DNA from: an uncultured Actinomycetota bacterium
GTDB lineage: Bacteria; Actinomycetota; Actinomycetes; Propionibacteriales; Nocardioidaceae
DNA length: 64,000 bases
Assembly: GCA_963711615.1 (NCBI GenBank)
Contig: CAVQEY010000004.1
Span: forward strand, 38,617 to 102,616
Direction: 5' to 3'
This document shows, in pieces, positions 24,459 to 43,458 of the stretch (position 1 is the stretch's first letter; every line of letters begins with the position of its first letter). The notes under the pieces were generated by a model, which saw only the letters and a list, made by a program, of their open reading frames with translations, searched no databases and was not told the DNA's origin. A program made the position numbers and the translations under genes.

Positions 24459-24590
24459 GCGCTGCAACGCTCGATTTTTGCCGATTTTCCGGGTTTTCCT
24501 GACACGGGCCCATAGCATGCGCCACTCTGGTCACTCTGACCTCAGAAGTTGTCACGAGCCATTCGGGGACGACAGGTAAGGGGTGGGCGC

Positions 24591-26027
24591 ATGGCCGTAT
24601 CACGACTCCACGTTCGTCACCTCGCCGCCGTCACGATCGTTGCCGCGAGCACCCTCGCTGGCCTCGCCACTGCGGCGTCGGACACCACGGACTGGGTGGG
24701 GAACCCGACCTTCGCGATCAACACGTCGTCGTGGACCGTCTCGTCGTACGGCCGGCTCACGGCGCTGGAGTCCTCAGACGTCCCCTATGGCCGACTGACA
24801 TCGCGGGATGGCAGACGGACGGTTCACATGACGTCTCTTCCCTCCACCAAGCTGCTGCCCGAGGGCTCCACGATGACGATCAAGCTCGAGGTCAGGACAC
24901 CGAAACCCACCGTCAAGATCGGCGTCCAGGCGCGCGAGCTCGACGACGAGGGCCTCATCGTCGCATCAACGACGTGGACGAGCTCCAGCGGCAGCAGCGC
25001 ATGGCGCTCGCCCAAGGTCACGCTCACGACCCGTGCGACCGGCCACCGGTTCGCCCTGCGCATCACCGCTTACTCCATGCCCGAATCGAAGAGCCTCAGG
25101 GTTCGCGACATCGAGGCCACACTGACCGCACCAACCCCGACGCCGACACCCAGTCCAGCTTCGACGTCGAGCCCGCCGCCGCCTCCGTCGACGGCGTCCG
25201 ACCTGCCCGTGGCCGGGTATACGCACGGTAGCGCGGGGGTCAGGCCGTGCAGCGCCAGCCAGCTCGAGCAGCTCGATTACAGTCGCGCCGATCAGGGTGA
25301 GCTCGCCTGGGCCGACGAGTTCGAGGGGACGGGCGTCGACACCGCTCGCTGGCGGGTTCGCGACGAGACCACTCTGTCGTTCGACCAAGCGCGCATCATG
25401 GCCGCGAACGTCGGCGTGAGCGACGGCAGGCTGTCGATCACAGGCCGTCGACAGACCATCGCCGGCCGCGACTACACGACCGGATACCTCGACACCATCG
25501 GCAAGTTTTCCCGCCAGTACGGCCGATGGGAGATCCGGGCGAAGCTGCCCACCGCTCCCCAGATCTCGCGGGGTCTGTGGCCGGCCTTCTGGTTGCGCGC
25601 CGACCAGCTGCCCGGCGAGGTCGACATCATGGAGGCTTGGGGTGATCCGTCGTCTCGGGAGCCCAACTCGCTCGCGACCTCCTATGCATGGACGGTCCAC
25701 GAGAACACCAACAGCCCTCCCGGCAGCCAGAGGTTCGGCGGGTGGGGACACCTGAAGACCCCCATCGCCGACTCGTTCCACGTCTGGGCCGTCGACTGGT
25801 CGCCCATGTGCTTGAAGTTCACCATGAATGGCGTGACGACCGGATCAATAGCCCTGGAGAGTGCGCCTTGGATCGCGCCCTCGCTGGCCGGCCCGGTCAA
25901 CATCAGGTTGAACATGCAGATCGGCAGCAACTACTGGGGTCTGGCCGACTCCGCAAGGCCCGAAGAGACGAAGCTGCCGGCGACGTATCTCGTCGACTAC
26001 GTGCGCGTCTACCGACCAGTGGGCTGA
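24591..26027 (+). CDS. Secreted GH16 glycoside hydrolase with N-terminal CBM-like domain
   Basis: Signal peptide, NPTF..W beta domain, Pro/Thr linker, WADEF, GLWPAFWL, catalytic EVDIME (ExDxxE), VDYVRVY. Confidence 0.9.
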   Translation: MAVSRLHVRHLAAVTIVAASTLAGLATAASDTTDWVGNPTFAINTSSWTVSSYGRLTALESSDVPYGRLTSRDGRRTVHMTSLPSTKLLPEGSTMTIKLEVRTPKPTVKIGVQARELDDEGLIVASTTWTSSSGSSAWRSPKVTLTTRATGHRFALRITAYSMPESKSLRVRDIEATLTAPTPTPTPSPASTSSPPPPPSTASDLPVAGYTHGSAGVRPCSASQLEQLDYSRADQGELAWADEFEGTGVDTARWRVRDETTLSFDQARIMAANVGVSDGRLSITGRRQTIAGRDYTTGYLDTIGKFSRQYGRWEIRAKLPTAPQISRGLWPAFWLRADQLPGEVDIMEAWGDPSSREPNSLATSYAWTVHENTNSPPGSQRFGGWGHLKTPIADSFHVWAVDWSPMCLKFTMNGVTTGSIALESAPWIAPSLAGPVNIRLNMQIGSNYWGLADSARPEETKLPATYLVDYVRVYRPVG

Positions 26028-30247: not shown

Positions 30248-30952
30248 ATGGCCTTCATGGTGGACGTCCGCGAGTCATACGCGCGACTCGCCAGCGCGCA
30301 GAAGCCCGGCGCCGGTGTTCCGCTTTACATGCGCTTCGTCAACAGACGGCTCGGCCGGATGATCGCGGCCGTCGCGAAGCGGCTCGGCGCGACGCCCGAC
30401 CAGATGACGGCAGCGAGTGCTCTGCTCTTCGCTGCGGCGATGGTGGCGCTGGTGTGGATTGCGCCATCGATTTCTCTCGCGCTTGCCGTCACCGTTCTGC
30501 TCCAGCTCGCGTTTGCCTTCGACTCCGCGGACGGTCAGCTGGCCCGGCTGACCGGCACGGGTTCGGTGGCCGGAGAGTGGCTCGATCATGTGGTCGACGC
30601 CGCCCGCATCCTGCTGCTGCATCTCGGCGTCGCGGTGTGTCTGTATCGGCACACCGACCTCGAGACGGCGTGGTTGTTACTGCCGTTGGGATTCGCGTTC
30701 GTGGCCTCGTTGCGGTTCTTCGCGCAGATCCTGGGCGACCAGCTGATGACGTCGCCACGGACCGCTGGAGGCTCGCGGGCGTTGCTGCAGACGCCGGCTG
30801 ACCCCGGCGTGGTCAACGCGGCGTTCCTGCTGTGGCCGTGGACGCCGGTCTTCCTCGTCGGATACGCCGTGCTTGGGGCGGGGAACCTGGTGTTGCTCCT
30901 GGCCACGCTGCGTCGCCGTCATCGTGCTCTGCGGAACGGTTCGGCGCCGTGA
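30248..30952 (+). CDS. CDP-alcohol phosphatidyltransferase family protein
   Basis: TPDQMT and FDSADGQLARLTGTGSVAGEWLDHVVD (DGxxARxxxxxxxxGxxxDxxxD). Confidence 0.92.
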   Translation: MAFMVDVRESYARLASAQKPGAGVPLYMRFVNRRLGRMIAAVAKRLGATPDQMTAASALLFAAAMVALVWIAPSISLALAVTVLLQLAFAFDSADGQLARLTGTGSVAGEWLDHVVDAARILLLHLGVAVCLYRHTDLETAWLLLPLGFAFVASLRFFAQILGDQLMTSPRTAGGSRALLQTPADPGVVNAAFLLWPWTPVFLVGYAVLGAGNLVLLLATLRRRHRALRNGSAP

Positions 30953-32232
30953 GCGCCGACTTGGCTGTGCCGGGAGCGGCACGATCCCGAGTGCTCGTCG
31001 ACAACCTGCCGGCATGGCCCGTCCTGGTCATGCTCTGGGGGTTCCCCTTGTTCTGGGCACTCGGGATGACCGTCCTCCCGGCAGCCGTCACGATGACCGG
31101 AGTGATGATCGCGTTCCTGGCCCGGCAACGTGACATCACCATCGTCTCGGGCATCGGCGTCTTCATCGCCTTTGCGACGTGGGTCGCCCTCTCGGCGATC
31201 AAGCTCGACTCCGCCCTGCGCACTCTGGGGTTTCTCTACCGCTTTGCGATCATCGTCTTCGCCGTGGTTGCCTTCGTCTACGCGTTGAACGCCCGCCGAC
31301 ATCTGACTGTTCGGTCGATCGTGAACGGGCTTGCGTTCGTCTGGCTCTTCACGATCGTCGGCGGCATCCTCGGCATGATCTTCCCGGGCACCCGACTCAG
31401 TACTCCGGTCGGCTTGCTCCTGCCGTCGAGCCTCACGTCGAACGAGTACGTGCGGGACCTCTTCTTTCCGCCGCTCGCCGAGGTCCAGCATCCGTTCGGC
31501 TCACCGGAGGTCTTCGTCCGGCCCGCCGCGCCATTCCCCTACGCCAACAGCTGGGGAGTCGCCATCCTCGTCTTGACACCGGTTGCGGTGGCGGCTTTCC
31601 TGATGGCGCGCTCGTGGGCGACCCGCATCGTGCTCCTCACCGGGGCGCTCGCGATGATCCCGCCCGCCATGGCGACATCGAACCGCGGCATGTTCGCGGC
31701 GCTAGGCCTCGCGGTGATCTACATCGTGGTGCGGTTGGCGATTCGCAACCGGGCCGCACCCGTGCTGGGGCTCGGTGCGATCGGTCTCTCGGTCGCACTG
31801 TTCCTCCTGTCGCGAGGGCTCGTCGACCAGATCGCCGCACGCCAGCGCTACGGGGAGTCGACCGGGTCACGCTTCTCCCTCTATGCGGAGACCTTTCGGC
31901 GTACGTTGGACCATCCGTTGCTCGGGTACGGAGCTCCGAGGCCCTCGAGCGTGCAAGACCTTTCGGTGGGTACACAGGGATATGTCTGGACCGTGATGTT
32001 CAGCCACGGCTTCGTGGGACTCGCACTGTTCCTGTTGTTCATCTGGGGCACGACGCTCCGCACATGGCGCGCCCCGTCGGACGTCCAGCTCGTGCTGCAC
32101 AGCGTCCTCGTGGTCACGAGCTTGGCGATCCTCATCTATGGCCTCGACATCATGCAGATGCTGTCCGTGGTGCTGGTCGCCGCGATGCTGCTCCGTCGAC
32201 GCTACGGGTTGGACGAGGATGACGGCCCTTGA
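30949..32232 (+). CDS. Wzy/O-antigen ligase-like polysaccharide polymerase
   Basis: About 11 TM segments, RPAAPFPYANSWG, SNRG, large loop with R-S, PLLGYG, HGFVGL. Confidence 0.8.
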   Translation: MSADLAVPGAARSRVLVDNLPAWPVLVMLWGFPLFWALGMTVLPAAVTMTGVMIAFLARQRDITIVSGIGVFIAFATWVALSAIKLDSALRTLGFLYRFAIIVFAVVAFVYALNARRHLTVRSIVNGLAFVWLFTIVGGILGMIFPGTRLSTPVGLLLPSSLTSNEYVRDLFFPPLAEVQHPFGSPEVFVRPAAPFPYANSWGVAILVLTPVAVAAFLMARSWATRIVLLTGALAMIPPAMATSNRGMFAALGLAVIYIVVRLAIRNRAAPVLGLGAIGLSVALFLLSRGLVDQIAARQRYGESTGSRFSLYAETFRRTLDHPLLGYGAPRPSSVQDLSVGTQGYVWTVMFSHGFVGLALFLLFIWGTTLRTWRAPSDVQLVLHSVLVVTSLAILIYGLDIMQMLSVVLVAAMLLRRRYGLDEDDGP

Positions 32233-33718
32233 CGGCATGAGACTGGGTCGCGCCGCCGGCGTGAACCTTGCGGCCGGTGCCGTCGGTGCTGTTGCCAACC
32301 TGTTGATCGCCGCGCTGGTCGGACGCCATCTCGGCGTCGTCGGAGCGGGCTACTACTTTCTCGTCGTGGCGGTCTTCATGATCGCCGCCAACACGATCGA
32401 GCTTGGAGCGGACACGGGCCTGGTCCGTTTCGTGTCGGCCGCACACGCGCGGGGCCGGCCGGAGGAGATCGCGGTCGTGCTGCGATCGGCCGTTCGACCC
32501 GTCCTGGTGGCCGCTGGGCTGCTGGTGGGGGCAACCGCCGTCATCGTCCTTGCCACTGATCCGCTCGTCGGTGTCCCGCCATGGCTGCTCATCGTGGCGT
32601 CGGCCGTTGCCGGCTCGCTCGCCATGGTCGCCGTTCTGCTGGGTGTGCCCCGCGGCTACGGCGATTCACTCGTGTACCCGGCTCTGCAGAACCTCCTGCT
32701 GCCCTTGGGGAGGCTGGCGGCGATCGGGTTGGCGGTGGCGGCGGGCTGGGGCCTCTCGGGGGTACTGGCGGCGTGGCTCGTTCCGGTGCCTCTCGTCCTG
32801 GTCGTGGCGGTGGCGATCACCGTGCGGCTCCTGCGTAGGACGGAATCGCCGGCCACGATCGCTTCGAGCGACCGCAGGGAGCTCGGTGCGACCTTCTGGA
32901 AGTTCAGCACGGCACGCGGCTTCGCAGCCTGCGTCGAGATCACCCTCGAGTGGATCGACGTGGTGCTGGTCGGCATCCTCGCGTCTCCCGCGGCAGCCGG
33001 CGTGTACGCCGTCGTGACCCGATGCCTACGGGCCAGCGAGGTCGTTCAGCAAGCCGCACGAGTCGTGGTGGGGCCGCAGATCAGCGCGGCGCTGGCGCGC
33101 GGCGACACGGACCACGCTCGCGACATCTACGGTGTCGTCACCGCAGCCATGATCTGGGTGACCTGGCCGTTCTTCATCCTGCTCGCCCTGTTCGGCGACC
33201 AGGTTCTACGCGTGTTCGGGCCCGGCTTCGACAGTGGCGCGGTTCCCATGGGTGTCCTCGCCGCTGCCATGGCCATCGCGACGGCGGCCGGCACGGTGCA
33301 GTCGATCCTGCTCATGGGTGGTCGAAGCACATGGCAGCTGGCCGACAAGACCGGTGCCCTCGTGCTGAACGTCACCCTCAACATGTTGCTGATCCCCATG
33401 TGGGGCATCACGGGAGCGGCTTTGGCCTGGGCTGTCACCATCGTCGCCGACACGGCGATCGTCGTGTGGCAGGTTCAACGCCTCATGGGCATACGCCCGT
33501 CGGGCCGCCACCTGAGGCCGGCGATCATCCAACCAGTCGTTCTCCTGGCCCTGCCAGGACTCGCCGCGCGGTTGATCCTGGGTTCGTCGGTGACGACGAT
33601 GGTCGCCGCCGTCATGGTTCTGGGAGCCGTCTATCTCGTCGTCGGCTGGAAGACACGGCGCGTGCTCGGTTTCACCCGGCTGGCCGCCATCCGGTCATGG
33701 GCGGCCCCGACTCACTGA
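32219..33718 (+). CDS. Wzx-type oligosaccharide flippase
   Basis: LGADTGLVRF, WIDVVLVG, polysaccharide-synthesis C-terminal LNVTLNMLLIPMWGITGAALAW. Confidence 0.85.
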   Translation: MTALDGMRLGRAAGVNLAAGAVGAVANLLIAALVGRHLGVVGAGYYFLVVAVFMIAANTIELGADTGLVRFVSAAHARGRPEEIAVVLRSAVRPVLVAAGLLVGATAVIVLATDPLVGVPPWLLIVASAVAGSLAMVAVLLGVPRGYGDSLVYPALQNLLLPLGRLAAIGLAVAAGWGLSGVLAAWLVPVPLVLVVAVAITVRLLRRTESPATIASSDRRELGATFWKFSTARGFAACVEITLEWIDVVLVGILASPAAAGVYAVVTRCLRASEVVQQAARVVVGPQISAALARGDTDHARDIYGVVTAAMIWVTWPFFILLALFGDQVLRVFGPGFDSGAVPMGVLAAAMAIATAAGTVQSILLMGGRSTWQLADKTGALVLNVTLNMLLIPMWGITGAALAWAVTIVADTAIVVWQVQRLMGIRPSGRHLRPAIIQPVVLLALPGLAARLILGSSVTTMVAAVMVLGAVYLVVGWKTRRVLGFTRLAAIRSWAAPTH

Positions 33719-35013
33719 CCGAGCACGATGTACTCGGGCCGCGGTGGGAACAGCGCGGTGAGCGCGATGTCGACACCCTTCGAGTGGAACAGGCCGACCA
33801 GGCGTCGTAGCGCACCGGCATCGTCAGTGGTCGAACGAGCCAGGAGCACCGAGTTGGATCTCGTCGCGAGCGCGACCTTGCGGGCGTCGGACGCAACGTT
33901 CGAGGTGTCGATGATGACCACCTCGCCGGCCCAGGAGCTTCGCTTCCTGTCGGTCGGCCACCCGCGGCTGATCTTTCCCTCGTGGATCGCCCCGGCGTCG
34001 ACGAATCGTGCCTGCCGGCCGCGCCGCGACAACGCTTCGACCAGCTCCTGACCCGGCGCCGGACGACCGGCCACTGGCTCGGAGTCGACCATGATCACGA
34101 ACGTTCCTTCGGGCTCCATGTTTTGCGGGATCTTGAGCATGAAGGCAGCGATGTCCCAGGTCTCAGCGCGGTCCGTGTCCTGCGTTCCGTCGAGCACGAG
34201 CTGGTCCTCGGTGAGCGTCAGGCCGTCGACGTTGTCGATGTGTGAGTCCACATCCTTGCGCGTCAGGGCGAGCGGAACACCGATCACGAGGCCGAGGAAC
34301 ATCCCGGCGAGCCCGAGCGGGACGGTCCCCGGGGTCGCGCGATCACGCGGCCGCGTTGCGGTGCCGACGATCCTGCCGGGATCGAGGTCGAGCGTGGTGA
34401 GCTCGGCCAGCTTCGTTCCGAGGGCATCGACCTGGATCCGCCACGAACGATCCACCAGGGCTGGTGCCGGCGATCCCGACTTCGTCGACTTGGTGGCCAG
34501 GCCCTGAAGCGTGTCGACCTGCTTCTGCACCCTCTCCTCGAGGTTCTCGATCTGCGTCGCGGCACGATCATGACGGGCCATGAGATAGGCCTTCGCCACG
34601 GCGTTCGCGCCGTCGGACGCCTGCGTCCGGCTGGAGCCGACGAACCTCATGCGAAGAACCTGGGAGTCCTGAGGGGTTTCGACCGAGGTCGCGTCCTGGA
34701 CGTCCTGGGTGCTCAGCCGATGACGCGCGCGAAGCAGGGCGGCGGCGGCGGCGCCCACGACGCGCGACTGAATCAACTCCGCCTCAGTGGCCATGTTGAT
34801 GGCATGGGCGCTGTCGGCGGACGTGTTGAGCGGATCGGTGTTCATGGGGTTCACCGCAACCGTGGCCGTCGCGGCATATCGGGCCGGGATCACGAAACCC
34901 ACCACCACGCCGATCACCAGTCCTACTAGGGCCGTCGTCGCGACGACTCGCCAGTGGCGCCGCAACGCGCCGAGGACGTCCGAGAGCTGTGCAGGTTGTG
35001 CGGGGCTTGGCAT
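33712..35013 (-). CDS. Wzz/CpsC-like polysaccharide co-polymerase with a degenerate C-terminal domain
   Basis: LRRHWRVV..TM..Y.ATATV.V...NMATEAELIQS, coiled coil, second TM with P..GL.G..LG; no Walker A motif in the C-terminus. Confidence 0.75.
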   Translation of the reverse strand: MPSPAQPAQLSDVLGALRRHWRVVATTALVGLVIGVVVGFVIPARYAATATVAVNPMNTDPLNTSADSAHAINMATEAELIQSRVVGAAAAALLRARHRLSTQDVQDATSVETPQDSQVLRMRFVGSSRTQASDGANAVAKAYLMARHDRAATQIENLEERVQKQVDTLQGLATKSTKSGSPAPALVDRSWRIQVDALGTKLAELTTLDLDPGRIVGTATRPRDRATPGTVPLGLAGMFLGLVIGVPLALTRKDVDSHIDNVDGLTLTEDQLVLDGTQDTDRAETWDIAAFMLKIPQNMEPEGTFVIMVDSEPVAGRPAPGQELVEALSRRGRQARFVDAGAIHEGKISRGWPTDRKRSSWAGEVVIIDTSNVASDARKVALATRSNSVLLARSTTDDAGALRRLVGLFHSKGVDIALTALFPPRPEYIVLGQ

Positions 35014-35139
35014 GACGATGTGTCCCTTTCCGTATGACCCCGGGGTGGCCAGGCGGTTACCGAGATCAGAGCGCACATGTCGCCATCCATGACGCGACAC
35101 TCGAACACCACGACCGTCGTGTGACGCTTGATGCCTGTG

Positions 35140-35151
35140 TGACGAATTCCG
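35140..35151 (+). promoter_or_regulatory. Candidate island regulatory motif TGACGAATTCCG, copy 2
   Basis: Lies between the divergent wzz-like gene and the ECF sigma gene; identical to 27265-27276. Confidence 0.45.
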
Positions 35152-35288
35152 CAATTGTTTGGACCTTTTCTGCTCAGTTCGTGTACAGACCGTCCAAAGA
35201 CTGACTAGTTTGGTCAAACTGTCACATCCGTTTACAACTCCCCCCAGTGCCGGCCAGGACCTCGCCAGTGCGAAGAACTAGAGGAAGC

Positions 35289-36641
35289 ATGGCCAACCCG
35301 AATCTCGGAGCCGCGCTCGAGGTCGACGATGAACTCATCATCCCGGACGACGGTCTGACGCTTCTCGCTGACGATGTGCTGCTCGATCTCGTGCGCGGCG
35401 GCAGCGCCAGCGCCTACGGAGTGTTGTTCGAGCGCTATCGACATCCTGCACACCGTCTGGCGGCCTACTTCTCAAACTCTGTCGACGCCAAGGACATCGT
35501 CGCGGAAACCTTCGCGGACGTGCTCCACCAACTCCGTCGTGGCCAAGGTCCGCACACATCCTTCCGCAGCTACCTCTTCACGTCGGTCCGCCGCGAGGCA
35601 GGCAAGCGCGCGAGGTTGAACAAGCGCGTGAGGGTCACGAGCGACCTGGCGACGATCGACAAGCCCGTGCCATTCGGAGGCGGCGGCTGCGACACGTTCG
35701 AGCGCGAGCTCGTGCGGGCGGCGTTTGCATCCTTGCCCACACGTTGGCGAACCGTGCTCTGGCAGCTCGACGTGGACGGTCGGAAACCGCACGAGCTCGC
35801 ATCGCACCTGGGCTTGAAGCCCAACGCTGTTTCGGCGCTGGCCTACCGGGCTCGAGAGGGATTGAGAAAGGCCTACCTGGAACAGCACGCGCTGACGAAT
35901 GGGACATCGTTGGCCGCTGCGTGCAAGGAGGTTCGCAGCCGCCTCGTCACCTTCGTCCGTGGCTCGGCGACGACACGTGACGTGATCATGATCGACCCAC
36001 ACCTCGAGATCTGTGTCCCCTGCATGGACGTCTACCTCGAGCTCGAGGAGGTCAACACCCACCTCGGCGCAGTGTCCACAGCGCTCGCGATCGGATTCGC
36101 CGCTCCGGCAGCCGCCCCACTCGTGGGTGGCGTGGTTGCCAAGGCATCGTTTCTCGCGAAGCTCATCGCCGGCTCGCTCGGATCGACCGCCGCCGTCGTC
36201 GCCACGTCGGTGACCGTGGTGACCGTTCCCATGGAGGCTCCCGTCCAGGCGACAACCGTTCACGCGCGCCACCATTCCGTGGCGCAGGAGCCGGACCGGA
36301 GAATCGGTCCGGCCGCCGACGGGCCGGGATCGGAGAAGCAGACCGAGACGGCATCGAACATCGACACCTCCTCGGATGCAACTGACACGGTCTCACCAGG
36401 GGACCCGGGAACCACTGGCCCAGAGACGTCGGCACCGACTCCGCCGCCTGACGGTGTGACGGTCCACGTCGACAAGACCATCACATCCGCGTCCGTCAGC
36501 AGGCCCGGCATCGAGGCAGCGGTGTCGGTCAACCTCCAGAAGCCGGAGGCCACGCAGATCACGGTCAAGGTCGCGAAAAGGGTGGTGGAGCTGAAAGCCG
36601 ACACGGTGAAGGACCTGGTCGCAGGTGCCGTGGAGAAATAG
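35289..36641 (+). CDS. ECF sigma factor fused to ZAS zinc-finger motif, TM segment and extracytoplasmic tail
   Basis: Region 2 AYGVLFERY...DIVAETF...FRSYLF.SVRR; region 4 AAFASLPTRWRTVLW...ELASHLG..PNAVSALAYRAREGLR; HLEICVPC (HxxxCxxC); RBS GAGGAAG. Confidence 0.88.
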   Translation: MANPNLGAALEVDDELIIPDDGLTLLADDVLLDLVRGGSASAYGVLFERYRHPAHRLAAYFSNSVDAKDIVAETFADVLHQLRRGQGPHTSFRSYLFTSVRREAGKRARLNKRVRVTSDLATIDKPVPFGGGGCDTFERELVRAAFASLPTRWRTVLWQLDVDGRKPHELASHLGLKPNAVSALAYRAREGLRKAYLEQHALTNGTSLAAACKEVRSRLVTFVRGSATTRDVIMIDPHLEICVPCMDVYLELEEVNTHLGAVSTALAIGFAAPAAAPLVGGVVAKASFLAKLIAGSLGSTAAVVATSVTVVTVPMEAPVQATTVHARHHSVAQEPDRRIGPAADGPGSEKQTETASNIDTSSDATDTVSPGDPGTTGPETSAPTPPPDGVTVHVDKTITSASVSRPGIEAAVSVNLQKPEATQITVKVAKRVVELKADTVKDLVAGAVEK

Positions 36642-37563
36642 CGTCCCCCCCGGCCTGTTCGTGCTCGGACTGGTCATCCTTTACGTGGTCGGGGGACTTT
36701 CCATCCACGCCCTGCGGAACTCGTCCCCCCACCCGGCCACGCCGAGGCCGTCCGTGTCGCCCACCGCCGCGACGTCATGCAGCGCTGAGGAGCTACGGAA
36801 CCTCGACTATTCCCGAACGGAACAGGGCGAGCTCGCATGGGCCGATGAGTTCGACGGCGATGTCGTGAACACGCGGCGCTGGACCGTTCGCGATCGGACC
36901 ACGTTGTCGTTCGACCAGGCGGCCATCCTCGCCCGCAACGTGGCCGTCCGCGACGGCACACTGACGATCGAGGCGCGCCGTGAGTCTTGGGGCGGCCGCG
37001 ACTACACCACGGGGTATCTCGACACGATCGGGCACTTCTCCCAGCGCCACGGTCGATGGGAGATCAGGGCCCGGTTGCCGGTCACGGCCGGATCGTCACG
37101 AGGACTCTGGCCCGCGTTCTGGCTGCGTGCCGACGACGCTCCCGGCGAGATCGACGTCATGGAGGCCTGGGGAACGCCGGCCGACGATCCCCTGACCGGT
37201 CCGGCACGGTATGCGTGGAACGTCCATGAGGACACGAACGCACCGGCGGGCAGCGGGAGCGGTCGGTTTCACGGCTGGGGCACGGCGCCGGGTAAGACGT
37301 CGCTCGCGGACGACTTCCACGTTTTCGCGGTCGACTGGTCACCTGAGTGCCTCATGTTCACCCTCGACGGCCGCGTCACCGGATCAGTCGGCCTCGACGC
37401 CGCCGGCTGGCTGTCGGCCGCCCTGAAGGGGACGGTCAACATCCGGCTCAACCTCCAGGTCGGGAGCCACTACTGGGGTCGAGTCGACCGGAGCAGGCCC
37501 GAGCTCACGCGGTTGCCGGCACGACTGGTGGTCGACTACGTCCGTGTCTTCGAGCGGCGATGA
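36625..37563 (+). CDS. GH16 glycoside hydrolase, membrane-anchored (paralog of 24591-26027)
   Basis: N-terminal TM; WADEF, GLWPAFWL, EIDVME, VDYVRVF. Confidence 0.9.
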   Translation: MPWRNSVPPGLFVLGLVILYVVGGLSIHALRNSSPHPATPRPSVSPTAATSCSAEELRNLDYSRTEQGELAWADEFDGDVVNTRRWTVRDRTTLSFDQAAILARNVAVRDGTLTIEARRESWGGRDYTTGYLDTIGHFSQRHGRWEIRARLPVTAGSSRGLWPAFWLRADDAPGEIDVMEAWGTPADDPLTGPARYAWNVHEDTNAPAGSGSGRFHGWGTAPGKTSLADDFHVFAVDWSPECLMFTLDGRVTGSVGLDAAGWLSAALKGTVNIRLNLQVGSHYWGRVDRSRPELTRLPARLVVDYVRVFERR

Positions 37564-37622
37564 GCGATCGGGGTCCGTTCTCGGTCGATCGGCCACGACT
37601 TCGACTGTTCGGCCTCGATTCT

Positions 37623-37634
37623 TGACGATTTCCG
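37623..37634 (+). promoter_or_regulatory. Candidate island regulatory motif TGACGATTTCCG, copy 3
   Basis: 11/12 match to the other two copies; upstream of the cytidylyltransferase-GT operon. Confidence 0.4.
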
Positions 37635-37712
37635 GGGAACTGCCGTCAGACTGAGGTTGTCCCGAACTCCCTATACGGGAGCGCCCAACAGACGCTGCCA
37701 TGAAGGGATCCC

Positions 37713-38165
37713 GTGTCCACAACGACGCACAAGACGTATCGCGTTGGTTATGCCAGCGGAGTCTTCGACATGTTTCATGTCGGTCACCTGAACCTTCTCC
37801 GGAGTGCCCGAAGCCGATGCAGCTACCTCGTCGTGGGCGTCGCGAGCGACGAGTACGCTGATCAGGTCAAGGGCCGACCGCCAGTTGTCCCGTGCGATGA
37901 ACGCATCGAGATCATCTCGGCGCTCGGCATCGTCGACGAGGTCGTCATCGATCGTTCGGTGGACAAGATGCTGATCTGGCAGCAGCGCCCGTTCGACGCC
38001 ATCTTCAAGGGCACGGACTGGCAGGGCACACCCAAGGGCTATCGACTCGAACGCGCGATGGCGGAGGTCGGCGCCGACGTCGTCTACTTCCCGTACACGC
38101 GGCAGACCTCCAGCACGCTGTTGCGCACGTTCTTCGACGACACCGAGATGGAGGGCGGACCGTGA
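37713..38165 (+). CDS. Cytidylyltransferase (glycerol-3-phosphate cytidylyltransferase/TagD-like)
   Basis: GVFDMFHVGHLNLL (HxGH), FKGTDW, YFPYTRQTSSTLLR. Confidence 0.9.
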   Translation: MSTTTHKTYRVGYASGVFDMFHVGHLNLLRSARSRCSYLVVGVASDEYADQVKGRPPVVPCDERIEIISALGIVDEVVIDRSVDKMLIWQQRPFDAIFKGTDWQGTPKGYRLERAMAEVGADVVYFPYTRQTSSTLLRTFFDDTEMEGGP

Positions 38166-39106
38166 GCCTGCGTGACGCCGGCACGAAAGTGGTCGCCAGC
38201 CCAGCGGTCACCGCCGTCGTTCCCACGCACCGGAGACCGGACCTGATGCGCCGGGCCGTGCAGAGCATCCTCGACCAGGACTATCCAGGACTCATCGAGA
38301 TCGTTGTCGTGTTCGACGACTGCGCCCCGGAACTTCCCGACGTCAAGACCGGGTCAATGCGGACGCTGCATGCTGTCGTCAACGAGCGGGTCAGAGGTCT
38401 GGCCGGTGCACGAAATACCGGGATCCTGGCCGCGTCTCACGGTTTCGTCGCCTTCCTGGACGACGACGACGCCTGGCTCCCGGGCAAGTTGACCGCCCAG
38501 ATGCCGCTCTTCGAAGAGCACTTGGACGTCCGTCTCGTCGGCTCCGCGATGCAGGTAGACGACGGTCGCCAGATCCATGCGCGGCTCGTCCCCACCGACG
38601 TCGTCACCCGAGACGATCTCGTCCGCAACCGACTGGCCGGCCTGCACTCCAGCAGCTTCGTCTTCCGCCGCGATGCGCTGGTCGACGAGATAGGGCTCAT
38701 CGACGAAGACCTGCCCGGGGCCTACGGCGAGGACTACGACGTATTGCTCATGACAGCCGGGATCGCTCCCATCCGTCTGGTGAACGAACCGCTCGTGTCG
38801 GTGCGGTGGCAGGGTCAGTCGTACTACTTCGGACGTTGGGCTGAGTATGCGAGGGCACTGGCCTACCTCTTGGCCAAGCATGAGGACATCGCTGACGATC
38901 CAGACGCCCTCGCCCGAATTCGGTCTCAGATCGCGTTCGCACTTGCCGCATCCCGCCAGGGGCGCGCCTCGCGCTCTCTCATCCGCGACGTGTTGCGCCA
39001 CCAACCACGAAACCTGCGCGCCTGGCTCGCGCTGGCGATCTCCTTCCGCCTGCTCTCCGCCGATGCCGTCGGACGACTGGCGAATCGATTCGGGAAGGGC
39101 ATCTGA
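38162..39106 (+). CDS. GT2 glycosyltransferase
   Basis: VVPTHRRPDL, GLAGARNTG, FLDDDD, EDYD. Confidence 0.9.
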   Translation: MSLRDAGTKVVASPAVTAVVPTHRRPDLMRRAVQSILDQDYPGLIEIVVVFDDCAPELPDVKTGSMRTLHAVVNERVRGLAGARNTGILAASHGFVAFLDDDDAWLPGKLTAQMPLFEEHLDVRLVGSAMQVDDGRQIHARLVPTDVVTRDDLVRNRLAGLHSSSFVFRRDALVDEIGLIDEDLPGAYGEDYDVLLMTAGIAPIRLVNEPLVSVRWQGQSYYFGRWAEYARALAYLLAKHEDIADDPDALARIRSQIAFALAASRQGRASRSLIRDVLRHQPRNLRAWLALAISFRLLSADAVGRLANRFGKGI

Positions 39107-39555
39107 TGAAGGTGCTCATCGTCTGCTCGTCCGGCGGTCATCTCGCTCAGGCGCTGGCGCTGAAGCCGTGGTGGGGTGATCACGATCGGCTGTGGGTCAC
39201 CGGGCCGACACAGGATGCGCGGATGAAGCTGAGGGGCGAACAAGCCGTCGCGTGCCACTGGCCGACCCAGCGCAGCATTCCGAACCTCCTGCGCAACGCA
39301 CGACTGGCTCGCCGTGTGCTGCACGACTATCGCCCCGACATCGTCTTCAGCACCGGAGCCGCCGTTGCCGTGCCGTTCATGTGGCAGGCCCACAGCGTCG
39401 GCGCACGCTCGATCTATCTCGAGACCGTCGATCGCATCGACAAACCGTCGTTGAGTGGTCGCCTGGTCTACCCGATCGTCGATGAGTACCTCACCCAGTG
39501 GGAACAGCTCGGCGAACGTTTGCCGCGCTCGAAGCTCGTGGGGCTGGTCCTGTGA
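39106..39555 (+). CDS. PssD/Cps14F (Alg14-like) glycosyltransferase subunit
   Basis: VCSSGGHLAQ, RPDIVFSTGAAVAVPF, YLET.DRI..PSLSGRL, QWE. Confidence 0.9.
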   Translation: MKVLIVCSSGGHLAQALALKPWWGDHDRLWVTGPTQDARMKLRGEQAVACHWPTQRSIPNLLRNARLARRVLHDYRPDIVFSTGAAVAVPFMWQAHSVGARSIYLETVDRIDKPSLSGRLVYPIVDEYLTQWEQLGERLPRSKLVGLVL

Positions 39556-41378
39556 GTGAGACCTTCACAGTCGTCGCAAGCGTCGGCACCTACCACCACC
39601 CATTCGACCGCTTCGTCGAGTGGCTCGAGCCCTGGACCATGCGGAACAAGGCGAGAGTGGTGTTCCAGCACGGTTCCACCCGCCCGATGCGCGGCTCGGA
39701 GAACCACGAACTGCTCTCGCCCAAGGAGCTGCTCGAGCAGTACCGCGCCGCGGACGCGATCGTCCTTCAGGGCGGCGCAGGTGGCGTGATGGATGCCCGC
39801 AAGGTCGGTCGGATCCCGATCGTCGTACCCCGTATTCCCATCGACCAGGAAGTGGTCGACGACCACCAGGTGATCCTGTGCCGCAGGCTCGCCGAACTGG
39901 GGGTCGTGCATGTCGCCGAGTCGGCAGCGGATCTGGCGCGATTGCTCGACGGCACGAGGTCCGGCTCCGTCTCGTCGCGTCAGAGCAAGCGCCGCCCATC
40001 GCCAGGGGTCCGGGAGGCCGTGCGACTGCTCGCGGGACAGGATCCAACCGCGTACCGCATCGAACGCGGCGAAGTTCGGCTGCGACCACGGCTCCGTCGC
40101 CGGCCGAGCGCGAAGACCCGTCTACTGCGCCTCGTGCACCGGGGTGCGCTCGCTTACCTCCTCGCGTTCGCGATGGCATTCTTCCTGCTCGACCGTGCTT
40201 CGCTCGCTCCGCGATCCGAGGCGCTCACCCTGGGTTGCGTCGGCGCCTGGCTGGCCGTCAGCTTCGCCGTGCTGCCGGCCTACGAACGCGCGCGATCATT
40301 CAAACCAGTGCTGTGGTTCGTCGCCCTGCTCGGGGTGGGACTGGTGGTCGCGCTGCTCCTGGGTGCGGAGACGTCGGCGCAGCTCCGTCGCGGCCTGGGT
40401 GTGGGGCTAGCGTCCGCCGCCACGCTCGCTGCCGTTTCGGCCGTCGCGCGAGTTGCGTTCCGACGCACACCGACCGTCCTCGTCGGCAATGAATCCTCGG
40501 TTCGACGGCTCGCCACTCGCTGGCTGGAGCGCACGGACGTGAAGGTCGTGGCCACCTGCGCATGGCGCGGCACCAAGCCCGACATCCCCAACGGGTCGCT
40601 CTCGGAGCTGATCCCCCAGGTGATCGGAGCGGCGGACCGCAACCACGCGCGATCCGTGGTCATCACCTCGGAGAAGTCTCTGTCGACATCGACGTTGCGC
40701 GACCTCGCCTGGGCACTTCAACGTGCTGGTGTCGAGTGCATGGTGCTGGCAGACGGAAACGAGAAGGGCGACAACATCAGAACGCGTCAGCTGGTCGACC
40801 AGGTGGCGCTCTCGACGCGTCCTCCCACCGAGCATCTGGTCTCGACAGCGGTGAAAGATCTCATCGACCGGTGCGTCGCTGCGTTCGCCTTGTTGGTGCT
40901 CGCCCCGATCCTGGTCGTCGTGTCGATGGCGCTGCGGATCACCACGCGACACCCGGCCATCCTCCGCCAAACACGCACAGGACGCGACGGCGAAACCTAT
41001 GTGATGTACACGTTCCGCACCACAATCGCCACGCCAGGACGGGATCCGAGGATCTCCGGACTGGGCCGCTTCCTGCGTCGAACCTCCATCGACGAGCTTC
41101 CGCGGCTGGTCAACGTGCTCAAGGGCGAGATGTCACTCGTGGGGCCTCGTCCTTCGCTTCCGAGCGAGACCGTGCGTTACACCGACCGGATGTGGCGGCG
41201 CCTGTCGGTCCGACCCGGGGTGACCGGGTTGAGCCAGGTCAGTGGACGCTCGCGGCTGTCGCCGGAAGAAACGATCAGCATCGACCTGCAGTACATCGAT
41301 CATTGGAGCCTACGGCTGGACGCCCGCATCCTGGCACGGACGCTGGGTGTGGCCCTGACACGCGACATCACACGCTGA
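39552..41378 (+). CDS. Fusion of a PssE/Cps14G (Alg13-like) GT domain, membrane segment and priming phosphoglycosyl transferase (Bac_transf)
   Basis: N-terminal VGT..HPFDRFV...QHG...HQV..CRRL; four TMs; C-terminal D..DR...RQTR.G...DPRI..LGRFLRRTSIDELP.L.NVLKGEMSLVGPRP...RPG.TG..QV.GRS. One uninterrupted frame. Confidence 0.85.
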   Translation: MSETFTVVASVGTYHHPFDRFVEWLEPWTMRNKARVVFQHGSTRPMRGSENHELLSPKELLEQYRAADAIVLQGGAGGVMDARKVGRIPIVVPRIPIDQEVVDDHQVILCRRLAELGVVHVAESAADLARLLDGTRSGSVSSRQSKRRPSPGVREAVRLLAGQDPTAYRIERGEVRLRPRLRRRPSAKTRLLRLVHRGALAYLLAFAMAFFLLDRASLAPRSEALTLGCVGAWLAVSFAVLPAYERARSFKPVLWFVALLGVGLVVALLLGAETSAQLRRGLGVGLASAATLAAVSAVARVAFRRTPTVLVGNESSVRRLATRWLERTDVKVVATCAWRGTKPDIPNGSLSELIPQVIGAADRNHARSVVITSEKSLSTSTLRDLAWALQRAGVECMVLADGNEKGDNIRTRQLVDQVALSTRPPTEHLVSTAVKDLIDRCVAAFALLVLAPILVVVSMALRITTRHPAILRQTRTGRDGETYVMYTFRTTIATPGRDPRISGLGRFLRRTSIDELPRLVNVLKGEMSLVGPRPSLPSETVRYTDRMWRRLSVRPGVTGLSQVSGRSRLSPEETISIDLQYIDHWSLRLDARILARTLGVALTRDITR

Positions 41379-41398: not shown

Positions 41399-41962
41399 TC
41401 ACGGCACCATGTTCCGACCGGCAGCGTCGGAGGTGAAGCGCCGATTGTCATCGGAGTCCGGCCCCGTTCTCACCAGAACAGACCACGTGCTGCGCTCGAG
41501 TCGCAATGAGACGACGTCCTCGACGGCAACGCCACGAGCGTGGATGCCGGCAACCAGTCGCTTCGGCGCCCCGATCGAGAGCTCCCCGAGCCTCATGGCG
41601 CTGTCGAGCTCCCCGTCGCCGATCTCCCGCTCGTAGTCCTCCACCGGCCCACCGCCGGTGTAGGCCTCGCCGCCTCCGCGCTGGCCGAACCCTTCGACGG
41701 TGGCCCGCCCGTCCCCCGTGACGATGCTGAACTGGGCCGAGCGAATGTCCACGTGCACCTCCAGCACCCGCGCATCGCGTCCGTGCTGGTCGACGAGCTC
41801 GCCGACGGCCCGGGCATACAGGTCGTGCTCGAGGAAGTTCTCCCCCATGACTTCGCGCTCGGTCTTCGGATCGGCGAAGAGATCGGCGATGTCCCAAGCC
41901 AGGAAACCGAGCGGGACGACCACGACCAGCAGCCAGATCAGCACCTTGGCTCGGGTTCCCAA
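41399..41962 (-). CDS. Hypothetical membrane-anchored protein
   Basis: N-terminal TM followed by a soluble domain; co-oriented just downstream of WS/DGAT. Confidence 0.6.
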   Translation of the reverse strand: MGTRAKVLIWLLVVVVPLGFLAWDIADLFADPKTEREVMGENFLEHDLYARAVGELVDQHGRDARVLEVHVDIRSAQFSIVTGDGRATVEGFGQRGGGEAYTGGGPVEDYEREIGDGELDSAMRLGELSIGAPKRLVAGIHARGVAVEDVVSLRLERSTWSVLVRTGPDSDDNRRFTSDAAGRNMVP

Positions 41963-41965
41963 GCG

Positions 41966-43342
41966 TCAGCCCCAGGCGGTCTCGAGCTCGGCGAGAGACG
42001 TCTCGAGGTGGGCGAGGAGTCGCTGCAGGTGCGGAACGCTCTTGCGACAGCCGATGATGCCGAAGTCGAGGTAGTTGTCACGGCTGCACAGCGTGATGTT
42101 GATGGCCTGGCCGTCAAGAACGATCGACACCGGGTACATGCCGTCGAGCCGCGCCCCGTTGAAGTACATCTGGCTCTTCGGCCCCGGGACGTTGGAGACG
42201 ATGACGTTGAACGGTGGTCGGGCGTACTTGATGAAGCCGGGCAGGGGCGACATGGCGAGTGGGAGCATCTGCAGCGCGGAGAACGCCAGGATCTGGTTCT
42301 GCGAGAGGTCGCCGAGCAGCTTCTTGGTGGTGCGCGAGGAGTAGGCGATCTCCTCGAGCCGAGTGGCGCCGTTCTCGCGGTCGGTGGCGAGGTTCACGAT
42401 GATGGCGCCCACCGAGTTGCTGTCGCCGGCCTCCTTGCCGGCCGACTCCGCGCGCAGCGCCAGCGAGACCGGCACCATCGCGCTCATCGGCTCGTCCGGG
42501 AGCGCATGCTGCTCGAGCAGGTACTCACGCAGGGCCCCGGACACCATGGCCAGCACGACGTCGTTGAGCGTCGTGCCCGACGACTTGGCCACGCGTCGGA
42601 GCCGCTCGATCTCCCACGACTGCGCGGCGAACCGCCTGGCGCCGCCGACCCGGCCGTTGAGGATCGTCCTCGGGGCGCTCGGGAGCGTGATGTCGCCGTC
42701 GCGGAGGATCTGGCTGACGATCTTGGTGGACGCCGGCAGCAGCCCTGCCGCCTCGCTGGCGGCGCCGCCGAGGCCTCGCAGCAGCCCCATCGGGTCGAAG
42801 CCACCCGCGTCACCTGACGACTTCCTCGGAGGCAGGGCCCACGGCGGGACGCAGTCACGCGCGTCGGGGTCCTCGCTGAGCGAGCGCTTCATCAGCCGGA
42901 TCGCCGCCACCCCGTCGACCAGCGCGTGATGGATCTTGCTGTACACCGCGATGCGGCCGTCCTCGAGCCCTTCGACGACGTGGGCCTCCCAGAGCGGCCG
43001 GTGCCGGTCGAGCAGCGACCCGTGCCATCGTGACGTCAGCTGGAGCAGCTCGCGGATGCGTCCGGGCTGCGGCACCGCCGAGTGCCGGATGTGGTGGTCG
43101 TAGTCGATCGTGTCGTCCAGGGTCCACCAGGTGTTGCCGAGCGAGCTCACCGGCTCCGCCGGACGCTTGCGGAACGTGGGCGAGATGTTGTCGGTGCCGC
43201 GGAAGGTCTCCATGAGCTCGCGGACGAAGTCCGGTCCGGCGTCCTCAGGCAGCTCGAAGAGCTGCAATCCACCCACGTGCATCGGGTGCTCGCGGGACTC
43301 GGCCAGCAGAAACATCGAGTCCGTGGGCGGCATGAACGACAT
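41966..43342 (-). CDS. Wax ester synthase/diacylglycerol acyltransferase (WS/DGAT)
   Basis: DSMFLLAESREHPMHVGGL, HHALVDG (HHxxxDG), FNVIVSNVPGP. Confidence 0.93.
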   Translation of the reverse strand: MSFMPPTDSMFLLAESREHPMHVGGLQLFELPEDAGPDFVRELMETFRGTDNISPTFRKRPAEPVSSLGNTWWTLDDTIDYDHHIRHSAVPQPGRIRELLQLTSRWHGSLLDRHRPLWEAHVVEGLEDGRIAVYSKIHHALVDGVAAIRLMKRSLSEDPDARDCVPPWALPPRKSSGDAGGFDPMGLLRGLGGAASEAAGLLPASTKIVSQILRDGDITLPSAPRTILNGRVGGARRFAAQSWEIERLRRVAKSSGTTLNDVVLAMVSGALREYLLEQHALPDEPMSAMVPVSLALRAESAGKEAGDSNSVGAIIVNLATDRENGATRLEEIAYSSRTTKKLLGDLSQNQILAFSALQMLPLAMSPLPGFIKYARPPFNVIVSNVPGPKSQMYFNGARLDGMYPVSIVLDGQAINITLCSRDNYLDFGIIGCRKSVPHLQRLLAHLETSLAELETAWG

Positions 43343-43458
43343 TCGGCGAACCTCCCTCACATGGGTGGGTGACACCCCTACGCTAGTGGGCGGACGTGCG
43401 GCAAGTCACGGCATGTGAAATGTTCATGAACGGCAGATCACAGGATGAAAGGGTCCAG

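Follow-up and report, generated by a model that had tools for sequence, protein, structure and literature searches.

A PssE-like glycosyltransferase half fused to a derived phosphoglycosyl transferase domain in a Nocardioidaceae polysaccharide locus

Introduction

What becomes of a priming enzyme when half of another glycosyltransferase is joined to its front end? The question is raised by a stretch of 64,000 nucleotides (hereafter the window; positions 38,617 to 102,616 of contig CAVQEY010000004.1, assembly GCA_963711615.1) from an uncultured bacterium of the Nocardioidaceae. Here a single frame of 608 residues begins with a PssE-like domain and continues as a protein of the type of the large monotopic phosphoglycosyl transferases (PGTs), while the PssD-like partner is encoded just upstream. 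PGTs are the gatekeepers of all surface glycan pathways of the Wzx/Wzy- and ABC-dependent kinds. PssD and PssE of Rhizobium leguminosarum, like Cps14F and Cps14G of Streptococcus pneumoniae, work on the lipid-linked product that the priming enzyme has made.

A preliminary description of the window offered two options: the fusion could tether steps 1 and 2 of the pathway, or the PGT half could be a weak or dead scaffold. For the protein of the window it is the second option that the evidence favours. With a confidence somewhat above even, we take its PGT domain to be a membrane-anchoring, lipid-carrier-binding pseudo-PGT, with priming performed by an orphan PGT that is specific to the lineage.

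Results

Domains of the fused protein

The C-terminal part of the protein matches the PGT families. Pfam places Bac_transf (PF02397) on residues 435-602 (E 1.8e-51; 174.6 bits, cut-off 27) and covers positions 1-178 of the 179 in the profile, and NCBIfam places TIGR03025 (EPS_sugtrans) on residues 201-604 (E 4.6e-74) at 250.2 bits, below the cut-off of 295.55. In the N-terminal part PssE is found by NCBIfam on residues 10-145 (E 3.9e-14), with 52.8 bits that do not reach the equivalog cut-off of 120 for this profile (NF041548); the Pfam match to Glyco_tran_28_C on residues 59-132 is weak, 17.4 bits, under the 22-bit cut-off. The PssE domain retains all 14 columns that are invariant in 21 close stand-alone relatives, including the GG..G and DDHQ stretches. 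Judged from these sequences the homology to PssE is clear at the level of the domain, which does not by itself establish functional equivalence.

The open reading frame of 149 residues upstream is PssD according to NCBIfam (E 5.5e-28; 98.2 bits, equivalog cut-off 110) and Alg14 according to Pfam (49.3 bits, over the cut-off of 27). Since the PssE and PssD scores both lie under their equivalog cut-offs, the sugar transferred need not be the same as in the named systems. The stop codon TGA of pssD and the start codon GTG of the fused gene overlap by four bases in the sequence GTGA.

The preliminary description had read the 608-residue frame as a PssE-like domain joined to a WcaJ-like membrane region and Bac_transf, and this is borne out by the translation, Pfam and NCBIfam. 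It was also right that the Alg14-like partner is a separate gene upstream, translationally coupled through the GTGA overlap, and all the motifs it quoted are found: TFRTT at 487, DELPRL at 514, GPRP at 531 and GLSQV at 559.

An AlphaFold2 model was built from an alignment of 62 sequences and has a mean predicted local distance difference test score (pLDDT) of 80. In the model residues 1-150 form a Rossmann-type domain that resembles the C-terminal, UDP-sugar-binding (uridine diphosphate) halves of UDP-glycosyltransferases with the GT-B fold, for instance 2o6l (TMt 0.59). The pLDDT falls below 50 in the linker, at residues 162-183. Stand-alone PssE relatives carry an arginine-rich C-terminal tail that aligns to the same place as the linker and is of similar character. 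Four long helices follow (199-216, 220-240, 251-269 and 276-302), then a domain of alternating strands and helices (303-428), a long helix (429-465) and the domain with the catalytic fold. The best Foldseek match of the model is WbaP (8t53, E 1e-13), and the C-terminal domain superposes on PglC (8e37) with a TMt of 0.80 and a root-mean-square deviation of 2.7 Å.

The protein thus has what defines the large PGTs, a bundle of four helices plus a nucleotide-binding-like domain ahead of the catalytic domain. It also has what defines the BiPGT class, since the PssE domain at 1-150 puts a second enzyme domain of the pathway in one open reading frame with a monotopic PGT (monoPGT). In WbaP the domain equivalent to the Rossmann-like one ("DUF") mediates dimerisation and binds uridine nucleotides (PMC10942596). 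With four membrane helices between them, the PssE and PGT domains should lie on the same side of the membrane, which by analogy with WbaP and WcaJ would be the cytoplasm.

Reality of the fusion

A single frame could also be an artefact of assembly or sequencing that joins separate pssE and PGT genes. In such high-G+C DNA wrong frames often stay open, and frameshifts do occur among the relatives. Two close homologs are broken in this way, one with its PssE part shifted through two frames within about 150 bases (L006/G205) and one with a single frameshift in the Rossmann-like domain (G213). Both come from long-contig metagenome assemblies and could be pseudogenes or long-read errors; they do not outweigh the intact copies, which predominate. 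Two proteins apparently lacking a PssE or PGT domain, P0011 (453 residues) and P0031, are products of these frameshifts (L006 and G213) and not of split genes. A further candidate, P0014 (759 residues), looked like a triple fusion of PssD, PssE and PGT and was rejected: its blocks of 91% identity lie between out-of-frame stretches, so that it is a frameshift mosaic from an error-prone assembly.

The evidence against an artefact is broad. A search of 5.8 billion proteins gave full-length homologs, with 99-100% coverage and identities from 86% down to 46%, from NCBI, ENA, JGI and Logan. These fall into the clade of the window (clade A), where the PGT domain is derived, and a sister clade where it is canonical. 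Ten clade-A and 16 canonical fused proteins, which stem from independent projects and give at least 25 independent homologous sequences, share the in-frame junction seen here, and the isolate genome of Aeromicrobium sp. Leaf291 encodes a fused ortholog with PF04101 and PF02397. The linker is conserved in length and character, and within clade A its ratio of nonsynonymous to synonymous substitution rates (dN/dS) is below 1. Further, pssD lies directly upstream in every fused or truncated locus fetched, and its stop overlaps the start of the fused gene in all the fused ones. The proposal that all close homologs might turn out to be split fails, as most are intact apart from the two with frameshifts. 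The 608-residue frame is a genuine gene fusion, and we give an artefact next to no weight.

Residue changes in the PGT domain

We compared ten clade-A proteins with 44 canonical relatives, which include fused and unfused proteins as well as other actinobacterial large PGTs. Residues were mapped to PglC by alignment (the PglC chain in the PDB has four extra N-terminal residues), giving the following equivalents: L471 for Phe43, T487 for Lys59, T491 for Met63, R500 for Arg79, R509 for Arg88, D514-E515 for Asp93-Glu94, and R566 for Arg145.

The largest change is a deletion. Clade A lacks 20 residues between the KFRTM and DPR motifs, so that the distance from the Lys59 position to the catalytic aspartate is 26 residues instead of the canonical 46. 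The deletion takes most of the mobile loop, or helix-turn-helix lid, including the conserved L..NE..GPLFK segment. In the alignments residues 338-364 of WbaP have no counterpart in the protein of the window, and its loop is 7 residues shorter even than that of the small PglC.

The substitutions are as distinct. At position 487 all 44 canonical proteins have lysine and all ten of clade A have threonine; T487 aligns with the lysine of KFRSM in WbaP, so that the KFR[ST]M hallmark is absent. Canonical glycine 467 is histidine, arginine, serine or glutamine in clade A, and phenylalanine or tyrosine at 471 is leucine. Methionine 491 has become variable, as has tryptophan 571, and tryptophan 561 is serine or cysteine. 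The Asp-Pro-Arg motif at 498-500 is relaxed, with the arginine kept in 6 of 10, and glutamine 518 is arginine. The sample of 44 canonical relatives contains none of these changes. The canonical set has 72 invariant positions, of which clade A keeps 50, while five are conserved but different (T487, R518 and S561 among them), 12 are relaxed and five are deleted. The Bac_transf scores are lower as well: clade-A proteins have 164-179 bits, and the canonical fused clade reaches 231-239, which is 55-65 bits more than the protein of the window. The preliminary description had named some of the motif changes, all of which are present, but its list was incomplete, missing the 20-residue deletion between TFRTT and DPR and the further substitutions.

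What is kept is equally consistent. The dyad D514-E515 is invariant in all 54 domain-bearing sequences and the PRP motif is retained. Invariant are also R509 and R566, and K435, D439, R440 and P452 of the re-entrant helix; the residue before P452 is alanine in 8 of 10 clade-A proteins and serine in 33 of 44 canonical ones. By its fold and profile the domain belongs to the monoPGT superfamily, whose dyad, re-entrant helix and undecaprenyl-phosphate arginines it also has.

Studies of other PGTs give these positions a meaning. Lys59 of PglC is reported to be catalytically essential (bioRxiv 10.1101/2023.09.19.558431). Phe43, Met63 and Arg79 are proposed to contact the uracil, and when the ligand binds, the mobile loop 61-81 closes (PMC12550135); in WbaP this loop is replaced by a helix-turn-helix beside the active site, thought to open and close the site (PMC10942596). 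Arg88 and Arg145 mediate the binding of undecaprenyl phosphate: R88Q has minimal activity, and substitutions of Arg145 reduce activity 100-200-fold (PMC10519829). The uridine site, made up of these three residues and the loop or lid, is thus not preserved in the protein of the window. As the lost parts are the lid and the equivalents of Lys59, Phe43 and Met63, the losses fall on the nucleotide-sugar side, whereas nothing has changed in the dyad, in the re-entrant helix motif or on the lipid-phosphate side. We infer that the protein of the window primes poorly or not at all.

The same residues can be read in another way. The fused protein may still be a working bifunctional enzyme that primes with a changed donor or regulation, R518 taking the place of the lysine and the shorter lid altering the specificity, while PssD/PssE add a second sugar by channelling. 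We regard this as the main rival to our reading, less likely than the scaffold but well ahead of an artefact or a functionless remnant. The invariance of the dyad, the PRP motif, the two arginines and the re-entrant helix motif agrees with it, the five conserved-but-different replacements look more like a new optimum than like drift, and the loop in question varies among PGTs of different specificity (PMC10942596, PMC10186338). Against it speak the reported need for Lys59, the loss of the Phe43 and Met63 equivalents together with the fading arginine of DPR, a lid that has shrunk below the length in small PglC, and the fact that the canonical relatives sampled show none of this.

Selection on the two halves

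Comparing the protein of the window with that of G207, a relative at 86% identity (dS about 0.46), gives a dN/dS of 0.18 for the PGT domain and of 0.09 for PssE. The canonical clade shows the opposite order when dS is similar, with 0.08-0.12 for the PGT domain and 0.22-0.35 for PssE. Across species of clade A down to 64% identity the PGT domain stays at 0.18-0.26, a level of constraint that is also in line with an enzyme that has remained catalytic. Between the clades its dN is 0.34-0.37, about twice the 0.16 seen within the canonical clade at similar dS; PssE is not accelerated. The pattern is that of a burst of change on the branch to clade A, followed by renewed constraint.

These numbers also bear on the idea that the PGT domain no longer has a function and is heading for deletion, so that only the PssE, membrane and Rossmann-like parts matter. 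The doubled dN and the weaker constraint relative to PssE would fit, as would the deletion of the domain in relatives (see below). However, a decaying remnant does not fit a burst followed by renewed constraint: dN/dS has stayed low among quite distant species, the 50 positions are still invariant, the intact assemblies contain neither stops nor frameshifts, and the fold is predicted with confidence (pLDDT 80) and superposes well on PglC. We therefore hold a remnant to be improbable.

The locus and its evolutionary series

The fused gene is the last gene of a conserved Wzx/Wzy locus (Table 1) and the only PGT inside it, which would be natural if it still primed. Sampling the family with 120 genomes of 60 genera gave full-length matches in the genus of the window and in no other. 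The gene order in Aeromicrobium sp. Leaf291 is identical, and synteny of the polysaccharide locus (window 30248-41378 compared with L009, L053 and L054) extends across the genus and takes in an isolate genome. The locus has the look of a chromosomal cell-envelope locus that is conserved and carries variable inserts, not of a self-contained mobile island.

Table 1. Features of the fused gene and of the surrounding locus, in window coordinates.
Feature	Position	Strand	Basis
Fused gene, 608 residues + stop	39552..41378	+	single open frame, GTG start
PssE / Alg13-like nucleotide-sugar-binding half-glycosyltransferase domain, residues 1-150	39552..40001	+	NCBIfam PssE
Basic, poorly ordered linker, residues 151-186	40002..40109	+	low pLDDT
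Membrane region of large-PGT type, residues 187-302 (short helix 187-196, then four long helices)	40110..40457	+	AlphaFold2, TIGR03025
Rossmann-like cytoplasmic domain of large PGTs, residues 303-428	40458..40835	+	AlphaFold2, Foldseek
Re-entrant membrane helix and derived monoPGT-fold domain, residues 429-608	40836..41375	+	Pfam Bac_transf, PglC superposition
T487 codon, at PglC Lys59 position	41010..41012	+	WbaP and PglC alignments
Site of 20-residue deletion, spanned by residues 491-497	41022..41042	+	alignment with canonical proteins
Asp514-Glu515 dyad kept, then R518 (DELPRL for DELPQL)	41091..41105	+	alignment
pssD, Alg14-like N-terminal half of split GT-B glycosyltransferase, 149 residues	39106..39555	+	NCBIfam PssD, Pfam Alg14
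GT2 glycosyltransferase	38162-39106	+	Pfam; syntenic in all locus states including unfused
TagD-like cytidylyltransferase	37713-38165	+	Pfam; syntenic in all locus states including unfused
GH16	36625-37563		Pfam
Sigma/anti-sigma fusion	35247-36641		Pfam
Wzz	33712-35217	minus	Pfam
Wzx	32138-33718		Pfam
Wzy	30832-32232		Pfam
CDP-alcohol (cytidine diphosphate) phosphatidyltransferase	30248-30952		Pfam

We scored the state of this locus among 117 species genomes of the genus. In the commonest, unfused state a large PGT directly follows the GT2 gene, and GH16, PssD and PssE are absent; two such loci (G123 and G233) contain the genes for the CDP-alcohol transferase, Wzy, Wzx, Wzz, sigma factor, cytidylyltransferase, GT2 and PGT. 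In eight genomes PssE is fused to a canonical PGT. The genome of the window and four others, all of 2.6-3.2 Mb, have PssE fused to the derived PGT of clade A. Five genomes have a truncated form of about 407-429 residues, with the PssE, membrane and Rossmann-like parts but without the PGT domain. As the unfused loci have the same operon minus PssD/PssE, the pssD-pssE pair was inserted between GT2 and the priming enzyme of the locus, with PssE becoming fused to it.

An unrooted tree of PssD+PssE unites the clade of the window with the main truncated group (support 95/98) and sets the core canonical group apart (100/99). The truncated genome G155 is placed elsewhere, which indicates that the PGT domain was lost at least twice. 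In a tree of PssE only, with stand-alone outgroups and 150 columns, the branching is not resolved. As the operon around the truncated forms is the same one, its PssD/PssE part needs no PGT domain in cis; that such closely related operons manage without one weighs against a fused protein that still has to prime.

A PssE-domain search of 1.84 billion representatives returned, among its best 150 matches, PGT fusions in this lineage only. Other long PssE proteins among these 150 are fused to a sulfotransferase (Sulfotransfer_3/1) or a methyltransferase (P0146, P0172, P0259 and P0183), and a genome of another genus of the family (G118; L051:2572-4416, minus strand) likewise has a PssE-like domain fused to a tailoring enzyme. 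Tailoring enzymes seem often to have the Alg13-like half as their fusion partner.

Some observations concern the neighbours. The window has two GH16 genes, the one in Table 1 and another at 24549-26027. GH16 after the sigma factor gene is present in the PssD/PssE-bearing fused and truncated loci fetched, L006, L007, L009 and L010, and absent from the unfused loci G123 and G233, and from this co-occurrence GH16 and PssD/PssE may have arrived, or be kept, together. In L006 a gene for an EamA transporter lies between the fused gene and the WS/DGAT gene. An open reading frame of 425 residues at 41540-42817 on the plus strand gave no match in Pfam and overlaps the gene of the WS/DGAT wax-ester synthase (41966-43375, minus strand); in DNA so rich in G+C it is most probably a shadow frame. 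We also considered a CDP-linked donor, which would connect the altered nucleotide pocket with the neighbouring cytidylyltransferase. This idea finds no specific support, because the cytidylyltransferase and the CDP-alcohol transferase occur in all states of the locus, including the canonical one.

A candidate primer elsewhere in the genome

If the fused protein does not prime, another PGT should. The genome of the window (G000) has three further Bac_transf loci, and one of them encodes an orphan large PGT (contig 17, 72946-74238; L050:10944-12239, minus strand). Its neighbours are a DEAD-box helicase, TctA/TctC transporter genes and a GCV_T-like gene, so that it stands outside any glycan locus. 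Orthologs at 76% identity or more are present in all five clade-A genomes and in three of the truncated-form genomes, and no match at E <= 1e-140 was found in any of the eight canonical fused genomes. Within the small-genome subclade of the genus the orphan is 76-85% identical, with three copies in G221; in G216, which is 98% complete, it is the only Bac_transf hit. A candidate for a trans-acting primer is hence available in the clade-A lineage. Priming in trans would be nothing unusual for a PssD/PssE system, since in Rhizobium PssA lies outside the Pss-I region (PMC9961541).

Two other genomes of the genus, G215 and G231 (98-99% complete), have an ortholog of the orphan PGT and no match to the PssE, membrane and Rossmann-like part, although in G215 the absence is uncertain as 8000 bases were not covered. 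On contig 23 of G000 (15380-15929; L004 and L005) Bac_transf is split over two frames, of 258 residues (profile 1-64) and 136 residues (64-172), which is either a frameshifted pseudogene or a sequencing error.

Discussion

A model of the fused protein

The following course of events would account for these observations. An ancestor in one Aeromicrobium-like genus of the Nocardioidaceae gained pssD-pssE between the GT2 gene and the large priming PGT, and PssE was joined in frame to the cytoplasmic N-terminus of the PGT of the locus. PssD, which is translationally coupled, would dock on the PssE domain, and the two would make up a split GT-B glycosyltransferase, which the four-helix bundle and the Rossmann-like dimerisation domain of the PGT would keep at the membrane. 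In the canonical sister clade the fused protein would perform step 1, the transfer of a sugar-1-phosphate onto undecaprenyl phosphate, and together with PssD also step 2. The tethering of the two steps that was first proposed thus fits the sister clade, with its fully canonical PGT, and probably not the protein of the window, in which the Lys59 equivalent, the lid and the uridine-site residues are lost and whose close relatives at this locus include forms that have deleted the domain.

In clade A, on the other hand, the PGT domain would have lost the side that handles the UDP-sugar (the lid and the equivalents of Lys59, Phe43 and Met63) and kept the side that handles the lipid phosphate (the re-entrant helix, the Asp-Glu dyad and the equivalents of Arg88 and Arg145). 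It would then anchor the protein in the membrane, act as its dimerisation module and, by binding undecaprenyl-(pyro)phosphate, serve as a scaffold on which the lipid-linked acceptor is held in position for PssD/PssE, while the orphan large PGT of the lineage primes in trans. In a more specific form, which we put forward tentatively and hold with less than even confidence, the domain is a pseudoenzyme with the PGT fold that neither binds a nucleotide sugar nor transfers a phosphosugar. It would capture undecaprenyl-(pyro)phosphate-linked intermediates through its re-entrant helix, its Mg/phosphate site and its arginines, and hand them to PssD/PssE.

Several points weigh against a non-catalytic scaffold with priming in trans. 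The domain still has its dyad, PRP motif and re-entrant helix, along with 50 of the 72 canonical-invariant positions, and the purifying selection on it is comparable to that on many active enzymes. The invariant replacement Q518R lies one helical turn past the nucleophile aspartate and could restore the charge of the lost lysine, so catalysis may persist. The proposed lipid binding by the retained arginines is an extrapolation from PglC. Further, the association of the orphan PGT with the degenerate and truncated forms reflects one shared ancestry and should be counted as a single event, not as independent support. Finally, the survey of PGTs covered the Bac_transf type, and polytopic PGTs of the WecA type fall outside it.

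Whichever way the protein works, the genus is of use for active questions in the field: how the first step is linked to those that follow, and which part the lid and Lys59 play. One genus here provides matched natural variants of one locus (unfused, canonical fused, fused without lid and lysine, and with the domain deleted) that can be directly compared. If the pseudoenzyme model is right, this would be the first natural monoPGT turned into a scaffold that presents a lipid carrier, and would amount to a natural experiment on what Lys59 and the lid do. Should the degenerate domain still bind the lipid carrier, PGT folds would be reusable as acceptor-presenting scaffolds, and there would be a warning for annotation, as calls of "polyprenyl glycosylphosphotransferase" based on Bac_transf can be wrong. 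If instead the protein is still active, the truly essential residues of the superfamily would have to be redefined.

Comparison with known systems

Our literature search found no paper on a fusion of PssE to a large PGT or on its degenerate form; the fusion survey of 2021 (O'Toole et al.) was not covered. To this extent the earlier impression that the architecture is undescribed stands, but the Leaf291 protein with PF04101 and PF02397 was already public and the BiPGT class is recognised (PMC11626204). What is unusual here is that the partner is half of a split glycosyltransferase, that it is joined to a large PGT, and that the PGT half is apparently degenerate.

With the large monotopic PGTs (WbaP, WcaJ and CpsE) the protein of the window shares the four-helix bundle, the Rossmann-like domain and the re-entrant helix with its K..DR and proline motifs. 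The Asp-Glu dyad, the PRP motif and the equivalents of Arg88 and Arg145 are common to both, as is the place of sole PGT in a Wzx/Wzy/Wzz locus. Unlike them it has an N-terminal PssE domain and lacks the helix-turn-helix lid; threonine stands for Lys59 and leucine for Phe43, the Met63 position is variable, the glutamine of DELPQL is arginine and the tryptophan of GLWQV is serine.

In the BiPGT class (Neisseria PglB, Simonsiella BiPGT1 and Limnohabitans BiPGT2) glycosyltransferases or acetyltransferases are fused at either end of the PGT (PMC11626204; PMC12776464). Here too a monoPGT core is combined with a second enzyme domain from its pathway. However, the partner in the protein of the window is half a glycosyltransferase that needs a separate Alg14-like subunit, the fusion is to a large PGT and not to a bare core, and the PGT half looks catalytically compromised.

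Systems of the PssD/PssE type consist of two small proteins that are the halves of one GT-B enzyme and are encoded by overlapping genes (PMC9961541). As in PssD/PssE, Cps14F/Cps14G and eukaryotic Alg14/Alg13, the window has two GT-B halves that come from overlapping genes, but here PssE, instead of standing alone, is covalently tied to a membrane protein derived from a PGT.

The closest comparison is with the ortholog of Aeromicrobium sp. Leaf291 (GCA_001423365.1; P0018, 646 residues). The two proteins agree in locus, domain order and overlap with pssD, and are 52% identical over their full length, whereas the Leaf291 ortholog has every canonical PGT motif and the full lid.

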